In this document: piece after piece, positions 690 to 62,468 of the stretch
Layout of the letters: each line of letters starts with the position of its first letter
Position numbering within the stretch: position 1 is the first letter of the stretch
From: Octopus sinensis
Lineage: Eukaryota
Reading direction: 5' to 3'
NCBI RefSeq assembly: GCF_006345805.1
Contig: NW_021825323.1
Location: 868,001 to 932,000, forward strand
Length of the DNA stretch: 64,000 nucleotides
The notes under the pieces: model-generated
Seen by the model: only the letters and a program-made list of their open reading frames with translations
Database searches by the model: none
What the model was told of the DNA's origin: nothing
Program-made: the position numbers and the translations under genes

Positions 690-1513
690 GTCAATTTGTT
701 TTCATTCTTCTGGTTAATTCACAGATTATTTATGTCATTTATTTTTTAACATCTTTTGAGTTTCCAATTCACTTTCGCTGGTTAGTTGATATGAGATATT
801 TGGAGTGCCGAACTTTAATCACTCATAGAATTGTTGATTAATTAATATACTTATTTAAATAATAAATATTATAATATTTATTAAATTATGAAATTTGTCT
901 ATATCCTTTGTTATTGTTGTTTTTTGTTTTTACCGTTTTCTTAGAAAGATGAGCGAAGAATTCAACTATTCAGACAAGTATTTCGATAATATATATGAAT
1001 ATAGGTATTTTTAATCTATTTTAACTTATGATAGACATGTCATACTACCACACTCGTTATCTCCGAAAATTCCTCACACGAGACTACTTACAGAATCAGA
1101 ATGGAGATCATTGGGAGTAAAACAGAGCTACGGATGGGAACATTACATGATATATAAGCCAGGTGTTATTTATGCTTTGTTTAGTTTTAGAACCCCACAT
1201 TCTTCTCTTTCGACGTAAACTCAATAAAAATACTTGATTCATTTCTTTTTTAATCTTTGTTTGTTTCAATTTTTTGATAATTAGAACTTAAAAGCACTTT
1301 TTTAAAATAATACAATTGATAACACCCATTTTTACGAAAGAAGGCATTTTGCCGACGTTGATTTACATAATTAATGGAAGCGACTAGTTTCTAATTTTAT
1401 TCAAATTTTAAAATTGACAAAAAAAACGCTTTTTCGGTTTAATAGTGTTTGCGTAAGAACAGTGGACTGAATATAGTCCTGAGTAGATTTTTCAATACTT
1501 AATTTTATTTTAC
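690..1513 (+). repeat. ~825-bp direct duplication unit carrying CKS1 (copy 1; copy 2 at ~8121-8942)
   Basis: Near-identical sequence from tcaattt...ttcttctggttaattcac to ttttattttacaa at both loci. Confidence 0.95.
949..1237 (+). CDS. CKS1: Cyclin-dependent kinase regulatory subunit CKS1, 3 exons
   Basis: Removing 30- and 28-nt GT-AG introns gives MSEEFNYSDKYFDNIYEYRHVILP...[30 protein letters not shown]. Confidence 0.97.
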
Positions 1514-4700: not shown

Positions 4701-5134
4701 AATATACCAAAATATTAAAAAATTATAAATCTTTTAATTAGACCGCGACTCATTCTTATCATTTAATAATTTACTAAATTAGCTAAAGACTCTCTCATTT
4801 TGACAAAAAATTATATTTGTAGGAATTTAATTATCAGAAATTAATTTTTTTAATGGAAAACCTAAATTTCTTGAGTTATTTCTAGCGTGGAAGTATATTT
4901 TGCAGCAATGTTCTCGTACAAAGGTTATGTAAAGAATAGTTTGGAATATCAAATTTTAAAAGATGCTTTACAGGATAAATTTCCTGAACATCTTACAAAG
5001 CAAAAAAAATATAGACTAGTTAAGAAAATTGAAAATTTTACTGTAATTAATGAAAGGTATCATACAAATTGTAAATGTATAGATTGTATCTTAAATGTGC
5101 GAATTCAGATCACAAGCTAGTGATTTGTCTAGAC

Positions 5135-7213
5135 CAGTGATTCTCAAGTGCGGCCCCTGGGGCCGCATGCGGCCCCTAGGATTTAATTTGCGGCCCCTAG
5201 GTTTTATAAATGTTTTATTTTTTAATTTAATATTTTTAAATTTTATGAATAAAAAAATGTCACGTTTTTTATTTGTTGTTGTGATGTCTGATTCTAAACG
5301 TTGTCGAAAACTTTCCGAGGAAAATAGGATTTTTCAACACATCTGGGAAGAAAAATATTTCATTATTGAGATCAATGGAAAGGCTCTTTGCCTAATATGC
5401 CATTCTATTATTGCAACTCTAAAAACGTATACAATCGAACGGCACTACCGTTTCCACTCTATTCTTTATGACAAATTCACTGGTGTTTCTCGGACGAAAA
5501 AACTAAAACAAATGAAAGAAGATTATTTAAAACGATCATTTACTTTCAAAAGTGGCACATATTCGTCTAATATTAACCTGGCATCATACAAAATTAGTTA
5601 CCTATTGGCTAAAAATATGAAGCCTTATTCTGATGGCGAATTATATAAAACGGCAATCGAAATATTTGCATCGGAATGTTGTTCGCCCGCTGTTTTCGAT
5701 ATTGCACACAAGTTACCTCTAAGTAACGATACTGTTACTAGAAGAGTCAGTGATATATCTGATAATCTGATTAACGAACTTTTACAGTATGCAAATTGTT
5801 TTGTAATTTTTAGAATTTGTAAAGATTTTCAATATTATTCTTTTGCGCTTGATTGTTCCAAAGATATTTCAGATATCGAACAATTAGTAGTGTTTATAAG
5901 GGGAGTAACATCTGACTTTCGAGTATACGAAGAATTTTTTTCATTGAATTCACTTCACGGAGAAACTAAAGGAACACAGATTTTTTCTCCAATTGTGAAA
6001 TTAATTGAAGATTATCAACTGGATCCAAAAAATTAGTTTCAATTTCAACTGATGGAGCCCCTTATATGATTGGCAGTAAAACTGGTTTTCGTGGACGTAT
6101 GAATAAATGGAGGTGTGATAATAACTGGACTCCAGTATTATGGCATCATTGCATTATTCATCAGGAAAACCTAATTTCCAAAAATATTAAAATGGAAAAT
6201 GTTTCTGAAGTAGTGATAAAAATTGTCAATTGGATTCGGGCGAACGCCTTGAATCACCGAAAATTTAAAACATTTTTAACTGAAACCGATTCGGATTATG
6301 GCGATGTCCTTCTTTTCTCAGTAGTAAGATGGTTAAGCCGTAGCTCTTGTCTCAAAAGGTTAATTTCTTTTATTTTTATATTTAGATTTTATCAACTTCT
6401 CCCTGAAATTATTTTATTCACTGAAAATAAAGTGGACAATGCATTATTGAAAGACAATAGATGGGTAGCAGATTTAGCATTTTATGTGGATCTATCGGTG
6501 CATCTGTCTGCCCTAAATGTCGAACTACAAGGGGAAAATAAGCTAAATTATCAAATTTATGGATATATAAATGCCTTCGTTAAGAAATTAATTTTATGGA
6601 AAGCGCAGATATCAAATAATGATTACACACATTTTCCTTATTTGTCAGAAAATTCCGAAAGTGGCTCAACTGATAAATATTTAAAAATAATTGAAGATTT
6701 AAATTTGCAATTTGATGCAAGATTTCAGGTTTTTAGTATTTAATTTAAGCTGACAGAGCTTTAAAGAAGGTGCAAATTCAATGAGATTATTTGCATCTCC
6801 ATTAATTATGAAAAGTGAGGAGGTTTCCGGGATTTACCAACTGGAATTGATTGATTTGCAAAATGATGTTGAACTGAAAAGTTTGTTCAACAACATTTCA
6901 ATAATTGACTTTTATTCGAGAATTCCAGAGAACCGATTTCCGAATTTAGTCAATAATGCAAAGAAAAATTTAGCAATGTTTGGATCAACATATGTCTGCG
7001 AATCGACATTTAGTAAACTCGTTCGAATTAAAACAAAGTTTCGCAGCAGATTGACTGATACTCATCTGAGTGATTTGTTACGTACTTCAACAAGTAGAAT
7101 TAAACCTAATTTTGATTATTTGGTTAATAAATAATTCTTAAAAATTATTTGCGGCCCCTGTAAATTTTTTTTTTTAATTTGCGGCCCTGAGCAAAAAAGC
7201 TTGAGAATCACTG
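5135..7213 (+). mobile_element. Buster/Charlie-type hAT DNA transposon, complete
   Basis: 14-bp perfect TIR CAGTGATTCTCAAG; 8-bp TSD GTCTAGAC (5127-5134 and 7214-7221); subterminal TGCGGCCC repeats at both ends. Confidence 0.97.
5284..7134 (+). CDS. hAT transposase (GTF2IRD2/SPIN-like), 3 tiny introns, one apparent 1-nt frameshift in an A-run near 6030
   Basis: BED-like CLIC...RHY, SFALDCSKDISD, STDGA, HCIIHQE, VRWLS, FGSTYVCESTFS. Confidence 0.9.
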
Positions 7214-8373
7214 GTCTAGACAATGAACCCGAAATGGAGATCGTTGCTAACAGTTTGCATGACTTCTCGCATGACGGAGTTAACAAAATTGAATATGAAT
7301 GTCGACAACGATATTTCACAGTTAAAAATGAGATTATTTGAAAAGTCATTCGAAACTGTGAAATTTGTAAATTTGCGCGACCCTTAAAAGTTTTAACTTT
7401 TTTAAATCCTAGATTGGAGATATAAATAACCATGTCTTTGCATCCTGCCCAAATGAAAGATTTCAGATAGATCTTATAGATCTGAAAAGTTTTTCTACTG
7501 TAAATAAAAATTTTAAATGGATTTTAACGGTCATTGACGTATATAGCAGGTTAGTTTTTTTAAAATTTTTACAGATTTGCATTTGCGAGGCCGCTCTACA
7601 CTAAGTCCTCAAATGAAGTTTGTGAAAACCTCAGATCATTATTTTTCTTAAATGGTCCGTGTCAATTTCTTCAGTCCGATAATGGGACTGAATTTAAGAA
7701 TCGTGAAATGACCAATCTATGTGAGGAATTCAATATCAAACGAATTCACGGAAGGCCAAACAATCCCCGCTCACAAGGGATTGTCGAACGCTTCAACCAG
7801 TCAATTACAAGAAAAATGGCAAAAATGATCGACAATGATAATAAAAAGTGGCTGGAAAAATTAGAAAATGCAGAGTACAGTTATAACATTTCTGTCCACT
7901 CATCTTCTAATGAGAGCCTTCGTTGCGACTGGATAAGTTTGAATCTCCATATTATCCATCTGCAGAAATTATCAGTATTTTATCAAACAATCGCGTTGAG
8001 GTAGTTTAAACATTTAACTTTAATAGATAAAAAATTCGAAAAATAAAAAAAATAAAAAAAAAATTCGATGAGCGAAATTTCGATTGTGCCAATGTCCAGA
8101 CTTAAAAAATAATTAACAAGTCAATTTATTTTTATTCTTCTGGTTAATTCACAGGTTATTTATCATTTATTTTTTAACATCTTTCGAGTTTCCAATTCAC
8201 TTATGCTGGTTAGTTGATATAAGATATTTGGAATGCCGAACTTTAATCACTCATAGAATTTTTGATTAATTAATATATTTGTTTAAATAATAAATATTAA
8301 AATATTTATTAAATTATGAAATTTGTCTATATCATTTGTTGTTGTTTTTTGTTTTTACCGTTTTCTTAGAAAG

Positions 8374-8662
8374 ATGGGCGAAGAATTCTACTATTCAGAC
8401 AAGTATTTCGATAATATATATGAATATAGGTATTTTTAATCTATTTTAATTTATGATAGACATGTCATACTACCACATTCGTTATCTCCGAAAATTCCTC
8501 ACACGAGACTACTTACAGAATCAGAATGGAGATCCTTGGGAGTAAAACAGAGCTACGGATGGGAACATTACATGATATATAAGCCAGGTGTTATTTATGC
8601 TTTGTTTAGTTTTAGAACCCCACGTTCTTCTCTTTCGACGTAAGCTCAATAAAAATACTTGA
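8374..8662 (+). CDS. CKS1: CKS1 paralog (copy 2), intact
   Basis: Same exon structure as copy 1; amino-acid differences S2G, N6Y and HIL to HVL. Confidence 0.96.
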
Positions 8663-10239
8663 TTCCTTTCTTTTTTTAATCTTTGTTTGTTTCAATTTTT
8701 TGATAATTAGAACTTAAAAGCACTATTTTTAAAATAATACAATCGATGACACCCACTTTTACGAAAGAAGGCATTTTGCAGACGTTGATTTACATATTTA
8801 ATGGAAGCGACTAGTTTCTATTAGTTTTATTCAAATTTTAAAATTGACAAAAAAACGCTTTTTTTGTTTAATAGTGTTTGCGTAAGAACAGTGGACTGAA
8901 TATAGCCCTGAGTAGATTTCAATACTTAATTTTATTTTACAAAGTATTACTTTTTCACAATTATAATAAACTTAGGACTGTTTTTTAATATATTTTAACA
9001 TTTTGGCAATCAATATTTCCTAAATAACTAATAAAAGAAATAATTAAAAACTTCTTAGTATACGTCCATTAAAAAATTTTACGAAATTAAATCAATAATA
9101 AAATAAATTAGGTACTTTTGTAGAAAAAGATTTTTTTAAGAAAAATTAATCTTTTAGATTTTTTTATTTAAAAACTCGAATAAAGTATTTTATTTTAGAT
9201 TAACAGAGATGGTAATCACAAAGGCAATCTTGGATTCTGAATGTTTGTCCGCTAAAATTTATTCAAATTCTACACAAAAATAAATTCTATAACTATTTGA
9301 GATTGTCAACTTTTCCCCTTATAAAAAATTCTGAAAGCTATTAGTTGATAAATACCAATATCTTTCATTTTTATTGTGATTATTATCAAAACTTTAATTT
9401 TGCTGTTTATAAAAGTCTAATTCCATAACAAATATCGAACGGGTGAACATAGAAAAAATCGTACAACACAGATTGGCTTTTCTTGAACATGTTGCTCGTT
9501 GTGATTCATTAGATATAACCATTATGCTTAGCATAATGCTGGAAAGAAAAGTCTGGGCAGACTGAAGACTCGATGGCTATCAATGGTGAAAGTGAAATCT
9601 CCAAGTGTCGGACAAGAGTTAATTGGATGACATAATCTAACCTAATTTCATAGGCGTCCCTAGGAAAAATAATACAATCCGTCTTGATGAAGAAATTTGG
9701 CTTTGAAGGTGTAAAAAAGTACGGAAAATTTTATTGACTGAGTTACAAAGATGCCAACAAATTTCCAGCCACCTTTAGCTATCATCGGTGAGGTTGGTGG
9801 CTTTGTATCCATTTGAATTTCTCATATTGTCGATGATAATAAGAAGAGACTTAAAAAATTCCAAGAAGTGACTGAAAACTTATTGATAAAAAGTAAAACA
9901 AACGATGCTTAAAGAAAATGGCCATATGTGAGAAACTGATAATTCAAAGCCGACGGCTATTAAATGAAGAAAAAATTTTTTGATTTTTTTGTTGGGAAGG
10001 TTTAAAGGACCGCATCACTGAGGATATTCTTGATATGGTAGTTTTTTGGGTGAAAGATTTGCGAAGAACTTCATGATTTGTGGGGAAAAGGATTTTGCCA
10101 ATTTATCTGTACTTTGCCAAATTGAAGTTGGCGCACACAGACTGACACATACCATCCCATTTTATTATTAAGATTTTTATTTTTTTTCATTTAATGATAT
10201 TAGAGATAAAAAAGAGTCCGGGAGGAAAGACAAGCTTGA

Positions 10240-14600: not shown

Positions 14601-14792
14601 GTAGAAGGCGTAACAGTTTAAAACAGTCCATTGTTTGTATTTGATGAAAAAATTAATCCTAGCAGTATGTAAGATGAATTAAATTTAATTTATATTGTTC
14701 ATTACTGAGTACAATCAAACATTGTAAATTCAGTTTTTTGTGAATTTGTAATTTAAGCAAAACACAGCACAATTAGTAAATCAAACTTAATA

Positions 14793-15682
14793 TGTCACAT
14801 GCCCTGTTCGTTACCATGCCCCGCTCGTTACCATTGCTCTAAATTTTTAAAGTTTCAATTTAAAATATTTAAATGATTGAAATATATTTACTTATTAATT
14901 TAAAAATTAATAATATTATGGATTTTTATTTTTTCAATGCTTAACCATTATCATTAAAAAACAATAAATTAAGCATGCTGTTTTATCTCATGGTTATGGT
15001 TAGGGTATAGGTTAGGGTTAGGGTATAGGTTAGGGTTAGGGTGAAGGTTAGGGTTTGGGTGAAGGTTAGGGTTTGGGTGAAGGTTAGGGTTTGGGTGAAG
15101 GTTAGGGTGAAGGTTAGGGAATTGGTTGGGTTTAGGGTTTGAAAAAATTTAAAGTAGAATTTTCGAATGGAGATACAAAGATTGTTCACATGAAAGAATC
15201 AAAAAAGGACAAATTTAATTTTTCGTTTTAAACTTCAGATCTATATATGATTTTAAACTAAAAAACTGGATAAAGTTTGAGTTTTTTATAAGAGATCTAC
15301 AGATGATTTTAAACCTTTATCTTTTTACATTTCAAAAAATGTTTTAAATAAAACTAAAAACTGGTTAGAGTTAATTATAAAACTATCAAATTATGTGCCT
15401 TTAAAGCGTTTCACACAATTCACATTTTTAAAATATGTTTTAATGTGCTTATCAGTCAAAATGGTTTGTTGTATAAAAATATTATTTTAATTTATTTGTT
15501 TTAAAGCATCTTTTAGTATATCATTAAATTGTACTCTAATTAACCTAATATATAGGTTGAATTTTATGTCGTTGTGATTGATTATTAATTTTTCTAAAAA
15601 ATTGAAAAATCATTAATCAATTATTCTCAGAAATAATTCGGAGGTAACGAGTGGGGCATAGTAATCCCTGAGGCATGTGACA
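14793..15682. mobile_element. 890-bp non-autonomous TIR element (TGTC...GACA, Ginger-like) containing a telomere-like array
   Basis: ~40-bp imperfect TIR tgtcacatgcc...atgcccc.ctcgttacc; 5-bp TSD TAATA at 14788-14792 and 15683-15687. Confidence 0.9.
14992..15140 (+). repeat. Interstitial TTAGGG-variant hexamer array with 18-bp higher-order unit
   Basis: GGTTAG, GGTATA, GGTGAA and GGTTTG units in 6-nt phase; (GGTTAG GGTTTG GGTGAA) x3. Confidence 0.95.
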
Positions 15683-15899
15683 TAATAAGACATATGTTGA
15701 TAAAACTGCATTAAAAATTAAACTGTCACGACTAATAAATTTCTTTTAATTACGGAAGTCATGGTTTAAAAAAGATGATCAATAAAATTTCTCAGTTTTG
15801 TATAGGTGATTTTGTAATTTTTTCAAAATCTCATTAGTTATTAATCTTGTTGAGAGGCAATTCTATATTTATTTGTTAAATTGTATAAATTCTTAGTTT

Positions 15900-16813: not shown

Positions 16814-17839
16814 GGTCTATAGAATATTGGCCAGTGCTCATTTTATATTTTTTGCATGAATCGAGACTAGTATATGTAAAACGTCGACAAACCTGTTTTG
16901 ATGTCAATAATTTTAAATAAATTAATATAGAATAAAAGAAAAAAAACATATATGACCACGAGTGCAAGATTTCTTGCTCTCAAGTACGAGATTACTCTAA
17001 ATTGGATGTTAACCTTATTAAGGATTGTCATGAGAGAAAACTAATGGATGCATTAAATCCCAACTCAACAAATGCATGCAGAAATCACATGTAAATATTC
17101 GGGAGTCCAGCGTATTGCTAATTAATGGAAATAATTGTCCAAAGGCTGAGAAAAAAACTTTGCATGCGATCATTGTGGTTCGAGAAAAAAATATGGATTA
17201 TTTAACTACATGATGTAAATGATATGTGTCGCCAATTCGAAATAAAAAAAGCAAAAGATCAAAAACACACTTCTGTCAACTGTGACAAATTATAGTGCTG
17301 AAATAAGAGTAAACATGGCATTGCAAATCAAGCAGATTTTGATTCTACCAGAAATGAATTTCCTTAAGTCATGAAGTCAGGATTATCTAAACAAAGTTAG
17401 GATGTCAGTAATCCTCAACTAGAGAGCAGTCACGAGATCTTAGTCAAAATTGTGCCAATCGTTCGGGGATTATCCCCAATGATTGGGATGGTGAATTGTT
17501 TCACATAAGTTATCTGTGCCCCCCTCTCCTGGATACTTCCAGTTCCCTCTGTTTCTCAATAATTCCCTCAGAAACTCGAAATCTTCTGCCGATGTATACT
17601 TTTTCCCATTACAGTTAGGTCTTGATATCAACCCTTTCGCATTTCATGTAAATTCAGTTTTTTGTAAACTCATAATTTGAAAACTGCACTAAAAATTAAA
17701 CTGTCGCGACTAATAAATTAAACATAGAAAAGTAAGATTGGTTTTACGAACATTTGCATTAATCTGTGTAATAATAATGGTTTATAAATTAATTGAAGAA
17801 ATAACTAATTATAATAATAAAATACAAATACCACACGTG

Positions 17840-49444: not shown

Positions 49445-50050
49445 TGTCGCGAGCGCTGCGAGCGACCGAGCGCAGCGAGCGATCACTCAATTTCTAGATG
49501 CGATCAATCAACAAATTCATAAATTGACAAATAGCCGGGCTGGTATTTGGGTTTAAATATATTCGATTACAAAAATTAAAATCGATGCCAAAGCAGAATG
49601 TGCTTTAAAACCGATTTCATAAATAAAAATAAAATTTTAAAATTTATAATTGATATTTTAGAATAATGAGAAAAAATCTAAATGCTTCATAATTTATTAA
49701 AATGTCAAAACAAGAATCTTCTGAAGGAGCAAGCCTGTCTGCACAGTTCATTTGTGATTAGAAGACCTAATTTTAGAGATTGAAACGAGAAATAGCAATG
49801 AGATCTGTCAAATTATTACCCCCTCACAACCTAAACCAAATTAGCGTTCAGTATTCATTGATTTTACTTTTTATATTAAGGTCTACTTATAAATTATTTT
49901 ATGGGATTCAATGGAAAACTTAAGTTATTTCAATTTTAATTTTAAATCATGTTAAAATTTTAAATAATTTAATAAATATCTTTGTTGATGACAGGCTTGT
50001 TAGGCGTCAAAGTCGCTCTCAGCGCTCGGTCGCTCGCAGCGCTCGCGACA
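49445..50050. mobile_element. 606-bp MITE (TGTC...GACA, Ginger-like)
   Basis: 29-bp perfect GC-rich TIR TGTCGCGAGCGCTGCGAGCGACCGAGCGC; TSD TAATA at 49440-49444 and 50051-50055. Confidence 0.93.
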
Positions 50051-61970: not shown

Positions 61971-62468
61971 CTAAGAAAGTAAAACGTTGCACGTTTTTTT
62001 GTATTAATTTATTTTTGAATTAAATAATTAAATGATTAAATTGAAATACAAATTTTTTAAAGAAAACATTCATTTATATACTGGTATTAATTTAAAGACA
62101 TTTTGAGAAGGCATGTGACATTTCAGACTAGCGACCCTTAACGAAAAAGCAATGCATCATTTTGCCTGAAAATTTTTTGTAGCGTCTTTGAGTTTCTGCA
62201 TTAAATATTCCGAGAAAGCCCCTGGACCTTTTGAATATTTTTTTAATCGAAACGTGTTCAAAAGAGTGGAGCATTTTTCACTCATCGGCTGGAGATTAAG
62301 AAAGTCAAAATTATAGCTATTTAATTGATTGATTTCTATAAATACTGAGATTTATTGATATAATGAAGAAATATCCGAGTCCCTCTAATATAAAAACCTT
62401 TTAGGATTAAAATAAGTAAAAGTTGATAAATTTATTAAACGAAAAAAGATTTTTGGTAAATAACCAGA

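Follow-up and report, generated by a model that had tools for sequence, protein, structure and literature searches.

The locus raises the question of how a short mobile element came to carry telomere-like DNA, and whether that DNA plays any part at telomeres or in the loss of DNA. It lies in the window, by which we mean the whole stretch of 64,000 nucleotides that was analysed, on contig C1794 of a 2.7-Gb assembly (G000). A sequence-only reading had described an 890-bp element with inverted ends and a TAATA target site duplication (TSD), containing about 150 bp of phased TTAGGG variants, and this description was borne out (Table 1): the array keeps a 6-bp phase and has 11 TTAGGG units among variant hexamers. 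The terminal inverted repeats (TIRs) are perfect over 11 bp within about 40 bp of imperfect repeat, with TGTCA at both ends, and the 17-bp subterminal repeats are likely transposase-binding sites. A coding role of the array was ruled out by early stops and by a downstream relic that is out of frame. A solo LTR was ruled out too, as the ends are inverted and the parent has an integrase gene between them and no RT. We think it probable that the element is an internally deleted copy of an integrase-encoding transposon of Ginger2/Tdd-like type, that the array marking the site of the deletion is likely a patch from break repair, and that it is now a passenger.

Table 1. Features of the element and of related sequences, in positions of the window.
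Feature	Position	Strand	Basis or remark
Non-autonomous Ginger2/Tdd-like element, family F1, subfamily A	14793..15682	+	890 bp
TSD, left copy, TAATA	14788..14792	.	single copy in empty allele of run X1
TSD, right copy, TAATA	15683..15687	.	sequence
Left TIR with two 17-bp subterminal repeats	14793..14834	+	sequence
Right TIR with one subterminal repeat	15641..15682	+	sequence
Parent element's 5' non-coding region, to the eroded transposase start-codon region (14984-14989)	14835..14989	+	alignment to array-less, integrase-bearing L043, L076, L083, L085
TTAGGG-like variable tandem array, in place of the deleted transposase gene	14990..15139 (array proper 14992-15139, about 148 bp)	+	
Relic of the last transposase codons (C-terminal SH3-like part), with an extra short deletion particular to subfamily A	15140..15210	+	
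Parent element's 3' non-coding region; nested retroelement insertions frequent here in other copies	15211..15640	+	
Local duplicate of both element flanks, lacking 52 bp around the target	17647..17719	+	own separate contig in run X1
L113-family Ginger transposase gene fragment, rve core 7564-8004	7219..8110	+	
Non-autonomous Ginger element from a sister family, 606 bp, TAATA TSD, no array (control)	49445..50050	.	
Isolated 13-bp match to the element terminus	62109..62121	-	no subterminal repeat, no TAWTA flank

Regarding the distribution of the element, a DNA similarity search returned 58 matches (best 40 of 596 candidates). Exact left ends were found 36 times, all on small contigs, and TAWTA together with the terminus gave 102 matches, 96 of the 100 listed being on small contigs. 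Counting by hand from the terminus matches, we arrived at about 59 loci for this family (F1), all on small contigs and two of them belonging to a related family. Of the two-ended copies, 17 had been retrieved through DNA similarity alone; a perfect 5-bp TSD flanked 16 of these, and it was TAWTA in 14 of the 16. Of the 36 two-ended F1 loci, 33 had a 5-bp TSD, and no duplication extended to 6 bp; an array was present in 31 of the 36, a sample biased towards array-bearing copies. In 23 of the 25 copies with a measurable distance, 194-199 bp separate the left end from the array, and the two exceptions had lost a subterminal repeat or received a nested insertion. The earlier view of a mobile unit that distributes telomere-like tracts is thus upheld by a multi-copy TIR element with TAWTA TSDs that holds the tract at a fixed internal position, and the tract is no peculiarity of this copy, given that arrays were analysed in 41 F1 copies. 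The extra length of longer copies was due to nested LINE or hAT insertions; nested LINEs were frequent near element positions of about 780-790 (L005, L006, L008, L009, L017-L019 and L028).

The F1 copies form three subfamilies according to the array, namely C with 54-72 bp (5 copies), B with 138-360 bp (10 copies) and A with 125-372 bp (26 copies, the focal one among them). Loci that occur in duplicate and copies whose array is interrupted by an insertion are excluded from these counts, and the relations between the subfamilies were judged by inspecting the alignment. The canonical share of F1 arrays was 34-44% depending on the subfamily, the oldest-looking fillers being already impure (33-36% canonical), and the longest pure TTAGGG run was two units in the focal array and at most three in all 41 F1 arrays. 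The arrays diverge from the canonical repeat, differently in each subfamily, and the units that expand are variant ones, not canonical ones. Array length showed no link with purity (rho -0.03, 26 copies). By tandem gain of such variant units the array grew from about 54-72 bp to 125-372 bp. The G4Hunter maximum of the focal array was 1.40 (1.56 for pure TTAGGG), and the strict G3N1-7 pattern had no match in it, with three matches when loops of up to 9 were allowed; G4 folding is plausible as a prediction.

The small contigs that carry F1 belong to a second animal genome with tiny introns, probably that of a small parasite, which was assembled together with an octopus. Genes on these contigs have inferred introns of 24-30 bp and the GC content of the window is 36%, while in dicyemids the median intron length is 27 bp and the GC content is near 37% (parts of PMC6543705 and PMC6736024). 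An innexin on one small contig, filed as an octopus protein, did not exceed 46% identity with any of the other proteins listed, and no dicyemid-named protein appeared among the 120 matches listed. Furthermore, in run X4, whose sample code is that of run X1, the array was covered and the flanks and the element body almost not at all; the array signal in the runs is swamped by TTAGGG of the host. Because of the tiny introns, the GC content, the divergent innexin and the X4 coverage that lacks flanks and body, the second genome is likely that of a co-assembled dicyemid, as the sequence-only reading had supposed the host might be. Innexin matches occurred on about 33 small contigs of G000, which suggests that the innexin family is expanded in the co-assembled animal. 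A duplicated segment of the window (735-1490 and 8163-8919) contains a gene with introns of 30 and 28 bp that we take, from its translation, to be CKS1-like. A 75-bp satellite lies at or near four contig ends (L117, L121, L128 and L153) and a 95-bp one near two (L147 and L151), and both are candidates for the centromeric or subtelomeric DNA of the small genome.

The origin of the array can be read from copies that do not have it. One of them (L043) has both ends and part of an integrase gene, and a search with it gave more decayed array-less copies (L076, L077, L079, L081, L083 and L085). All of them share the left region of F1, and most also its terminus, and they contain relics of an HHCC and DDE integrase (rve E 7e-6 in L083); pieced together, they reveal an HHCC finger at the N-terminus, a DDE core and a short domain at the C-terminus. 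When the junctions were tabulated, the left non-coding region of these parents ran on into a start codon and a gene. In subfamilies B and C the parental sequence ends two bases into codon 2 and is followed by the array, and the left junction of subfamily A is an eroded version of this one. The right junction is common to the three subfamilies and falls at the same base near the gene end (near the last 50 codons), and the focal copy retains VEFSNGDTKIVHMK at 15154 as a C-terminal transposase relic. Therefore, from both junctions, the array replaces most of the transposase gene, and the deleted stretch would be about 1.2 kb long by analogy with the sister element L098. The junctions share 1 base of microhomology only, and the left one shows no in-register bases of telomerase type. 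The array is absent from the ancestral homologues and there is a deletion at its site, as is characteristic of short-ITS insertions. Since the array sits exactly at the deletion junction, it is likely a filler from break repair that later expanded and has been carried as a passenger since. Family searches of the assembly returned no intact parent of F1 or F2 (a second family, see below), so that for F1 we can only infer the mobilising enzyme.

Regarding the class of the element, near-identical sister elements of 1603-1606 bp (L098, L099 and L111) have TGTCGC ends, a TAATA or TATTA TSD and one integrase gene with four inferred introns of 24-29 bp. In L098 the TIR is near-perfect over about 38 bp and the Pfam matches were rve (E 4e-11) and H2C2 (E 3e-6); the C-terminal SPY/HPY segment gave a weak PF22938 match (E 0.024, under the cut-off), and YPYY was not seen. 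A profile search reached integrases of molluscs and rotifers and KRBA2-like ones (E 4e-41 and 1e-34 for the latter), and KRBA2-like proteins have been placed in the Ginger2 clade (PMC3575427, in part). No fewer than eight related types of terminus were found next to TAWTA, the sister families having TGT[CG][AG] ends. Because array-less relatives have a broken integrase-type gene and intact sisters have ends of the same kind, we regard the element as a non-autonomous Ginger2/Tdd-like one. The best named relatives of the sister transposase were microsporidian proteins (41-50% identity), a similarity that makes a horizontal-transfer link between parasites possible. Compact autonomous Ginger-like elements (L098:1913-3518, L104, L108 and L113) had Dictyocoela and Nosema proteins as the closest named ones. 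In the window itself, an L113-family transposase gene (4908-5039 and 7219-8110) is split by an inserted hAT at about 5040-7218.

The fit to Ginger2/Tdd, as described in parts of PMC2836005, PMC10045372 and PMC3575427, lies in the TGTNR termini, in the 5-bp TSD, the group having 4 or 5 bp and TDD-4 and TDD-5 having 5 (PMC2836005), in the AT-rich target, and in an H2C2 (HHCC) finger and DDE integrase as the sole gene, with no RT or RNase H. Nevertheless, there are differences from what those parts report: the target is TAWTA, not the RTATAY of published animal families (PMC2836005); the elements are very compact, at about 1.6-2.1 kb, whereas the table of PMC2836005 gives 2.7-6.7 kb; the TIRs are of about 40 bp and imperfect (11 bp perfect), against about 45-300 bp; there are introns of 24-29 bp and a C-terminal (E)SPY/HPY SH3-like tail, GPY/F and YPYY being absent from Ginger2/Tdd; the nearest named proteins are microsporidian; and the derivatives have a telomere-like filler. 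The class is therefore given as Ginger2/Tdd-like, being set by the features above, with size, TIR, target and tail all differing. Ginger1 was rejected, because there is no 4-bp CCGG/CCGT TSD and no C-terminal OTU, Ulp1 or PHD domain was found, for which the 1.6-kb sister element has no room.

A scan of 623 kb gave one TTAGGG-like array outside F1, and it belonged to a second family, F2, which is unrelated to F1 and has TAWTA TSDs (L177:941-1629, that is, G000:C1794:79740-80428, and L178-L202). Among the F2 copies (best 40 of 184 candidates) the TTAGGG-like blocks lie in 55-bp units and in some copies reach about 2.5 kb. What F2 retains of a Ginger transposase is its first 44 codons, with 50% identity to L113, after which the repeats begin; the junction is less exact than that of F1 because the F2 parent was not found. 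Of the 16 two-ended F2 rows, all had the array and 14 a perfect TAWTA TSD. The two families match in sequence within the array only, and the F1-A and F2 arrays share a 26-base variant word. All the arrays in about 1 Mb of small-genome DNA belonged to F1 or F2. On the other side, 400 kb of this DNA sampled blind contained no array, and the non-autonomous elements met there belonged to families of 606, 666 and about 880 bp that have no array, the 606-bp one being also present in the window. Since array-less derivative families multiply too, the array is not needed for mobility.

The focal site was also seen without the element. One contig of run X1 joins 14787 to 15683, with 895 bases skipped and 5 shared, which is a precise empty allele with one TSD copy (depth 33.9). 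In a second element-free allele (window 14758-15748, depth 21.3) about 99 bp around the target are absent, perhaps through a simple deletion or as the scar of an imprecise excision. The two depths sum to the flank depth of 55.8 and no filled junction of the focal site was listed; since the X1 data are assembled mixed-cell contigs, which drop rare variants, this does not show that the filled allele is absent. X1 does contain the filled junction of another assembled copy (L004), and its depth over the element body is about 38 times that over the unique flank. This figure comes close to the count of 36 left ends in the assembly, a rough agreement as depth is not copy number. The element was not covered in run X3, which bears on the matter in neither direction. 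The empty allele is most simply read as an insertion polymorphism, though it may also stem from a precise somatic excision, and the focal copy would be a recent, polymorphic insertion.

Two other claims of the sequence-only reading stood in part. It had likened 17648-17720 to an empty relative, and 17647-17719 does join a match to 14723-14754 (28/32) with a match to 15702-15741 (38/40); against the reconstructed empty site its best local alignment score was 71, compared with at most 32 in 300 shuffles. However, 52 bp around the insertion point, the target itself among them, are absent there, which makes the stretch a rearranged local duplicate instead of an empty site. In the assembly, the left flank of the element is single-copy. 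The 13-bp match to the terminus near 62.1 kb exists as well, but it is likely due to chance, because 4 of 100 shuffles reached as many matches to the 11-mer (at most 1 mismatch) as the real sequence; as it has neither a subterminal repeat nor a TAWTA flank, a second element end was rejected.

Regarding the telomeres of the small genome, no telomere array was found at the 40 ends of 20 small-genome contigs, and the parasite telomere motif was found neither at these ends nor among long TTAGGG matches. Six tandem TTAGGG units gave 1016 matches, those listed being on large scaffolds, and 14 units gave 47, which on small contigs fell only on C9474 and C11827. These two are not assigned to the small genome, because they have no small-genome match outside the repeats themselves and C9474 is host-like in appearance. 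Both contain kilobase TTAGGG blocks interleaved with short spacer repeats (C11827, as L204, L206 and L208; C9474, as L203). A telomerase RNA-binding domain was matched once, on the large scaffold C28, and not on small contigs, where a parasite gene might escape detection owing to its tiny introns and rapid evolution.

We propose the following course of events. In a single founder, a break inside the element would have been repaired with the loss of roughly 1.2 kb and the gap filled by TTAGGG-type DNA, which may have come from telomerase, from telomeric DNA or RNA, or from another repeat; the insertion of telomeric repeats with a deletion at repaired breaks has precedent (PMC7215372, in part). 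The short derivative would have retained its ends and so multiplied in trans, with an intact Ginger transposase binding the subterminal repeats, excising the element and inserting it at TAWTA. Slippage would then have altered and lengthened the array separately in each subfamily, in the manner of a minisatellite. The same kind of capture would have happened independently in F2.

This proposal has to be weighed against others. The donor might have been not the parasite telomere but another repeat with a degenerate GGTTAG tract, possibly octopus DNA, and F1-A and F2 might have exchanged the array; this concerns the donor only and is compatible with the array being a passenger. Similar variant hexamers do occur in degenerate tracts on a host-like contig (L207) and in run X4, where the window flanks are lacking, the oldest-looking fillers were already impure, and a parasite telomerase or telomere was not found on the small contigs and the 40 ends searched. 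However, the junction word of subfamilies B and C had 13 matches, all within F1 and none on large scaffolds, the word shared by F1-A and F2 was absent from the five host-like loci with TTAGGG tracts that were tested, and no donor was identified, so that we hold this origin possible but rather doubtful. It is less probable, and in our opinion unlikely, that the arrays were selected as helpful to the element, by binding telomere-repeat proteins or forming G4 and so raising copy gain or shielding it from silencing. Capture in two families does leave room for selection on the tract: two sequence-unrelated Ginger derivatives have TTAGGG-like tracts inside the deleted gene and a variant word in common, every array in the 1 Mb lies in one or the other, all the two-ended F2 rows have it, at up to about 2.5 kb, array-bearing copies are the majority in the (biased) F1 sample, and G4Hunter reaches 1.40. 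Nevertheless, these are only two founder events, the blind 400 kb gave derivative families lacking the array, and the arrays drift away from the canonical repeat in different ways.

The sequence-only reading had gone further, proposing that such tracts could seed telomere healing or breakage and matter for somatic DNA elimination, and this found no support. Under that proposal, the elements would distribute telomere seeds or break sites for programmed elimination and the empty allele would be a precise somatic excision, as with ciliate TBE elements. The likely host belongs to a group with reported somatic rearrangement (PMC6543705, in part), the array position is fixed, and the element-free depths in X1 account for the whole flank depth with no filled junction listed. 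Efficient telomere seeding generally needs hundreds of bases of exact repeat. None of the 41 arrays has more than three canonical units in a row. Furthermore, none of the 40 contig ends carries an array, each of the 29 arrays that could be located in the first 30 loci is followed by the element's right half or by element sequence, an X1 contig bridges the site, and X1 contains both the filled junction of L004 and an element body of high depth. We consider telomere seeding or breakage for programmed elimination very unlikely as the meaning of these arrays. A bolder version, in which two dicyemid Ginger families swapped their transposase for functional telomere-type DNA that recruits telomere-binding proteins and either favours the element or marks it for somatic removal, would make them an animal counterpart of TBE and the X1 empty allele a somatic product; we give it very little credence. 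A repair patch turned passenger is the reading that we retain as probable.

As parent and derivative are both present in the genome, the telomere-like tract can be pinned to the very deletion that made the element non-autonomous. Its capture in two unrelated families suggests that there is a general way for small DNA transposons to acquire and spread interstitial telomere-like sequence. A further outcome is the recognition, in a likely dicyemid, of a Ginger-type lineage that is compact and diverse, seems to have been active recently and has TAWTA as its target, and if the tract were functional in somatic elimination it would offer a direct handle on the poorly understood genome rearrangement of these animals. 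In the literature searched (mainly open-access, Repbase apart), neither Ginger elements of dicyemids nor Ginger derivatives with a TTAGGG-like filler were found described. The parts of PMC6736024 that were available contain neither 'telomer' nor 'transpos-', and hence no description of dicyemid transposon families or telomeres; the same holds, for telomeres, for those of PMC6543705.

Among known systems, the TBE elements of Oxytricha are similar in being DNA transposons that carry telomere-like repeats and in having a host that is reported to eliminate DNA from its soma (PMC4724952, in part). However, TBEs are Tc1/mariner elements with three ORFs, an ANT TSD and the telomeric repeat at the TIR tips, whereas here the repeat is internal and the family is Ginger-like; a TBE-type element was accordingly rejected, as the repeat is not at the TIR tips and there is neither a Tc1/mariner transposase nor an ANT TSD. 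Short ITSs at double-strand breaks, as treated in part of PMC7215372, resemble our case more in origin, with TTAGGG-type DNA at a junction, loss of the target and comparison with array-less homologues, but here the patch lies within a mobile element, has been multiplied by transposition and is heavily degenerate, and neither in-register bases nor a telomerase-RNA fragment were found. Finally, repeats borne by MITEs, such as Xstir of Xenopus and the GTCY microsatellites of insect MITEs (part of PMC6947457), share with F1 the spread of an internal variable tandem repeat by a non-autonomous TIR element; what differs here is that the repeat is telomere-like and that its origin is pinned to the deletion of a transposase gene.
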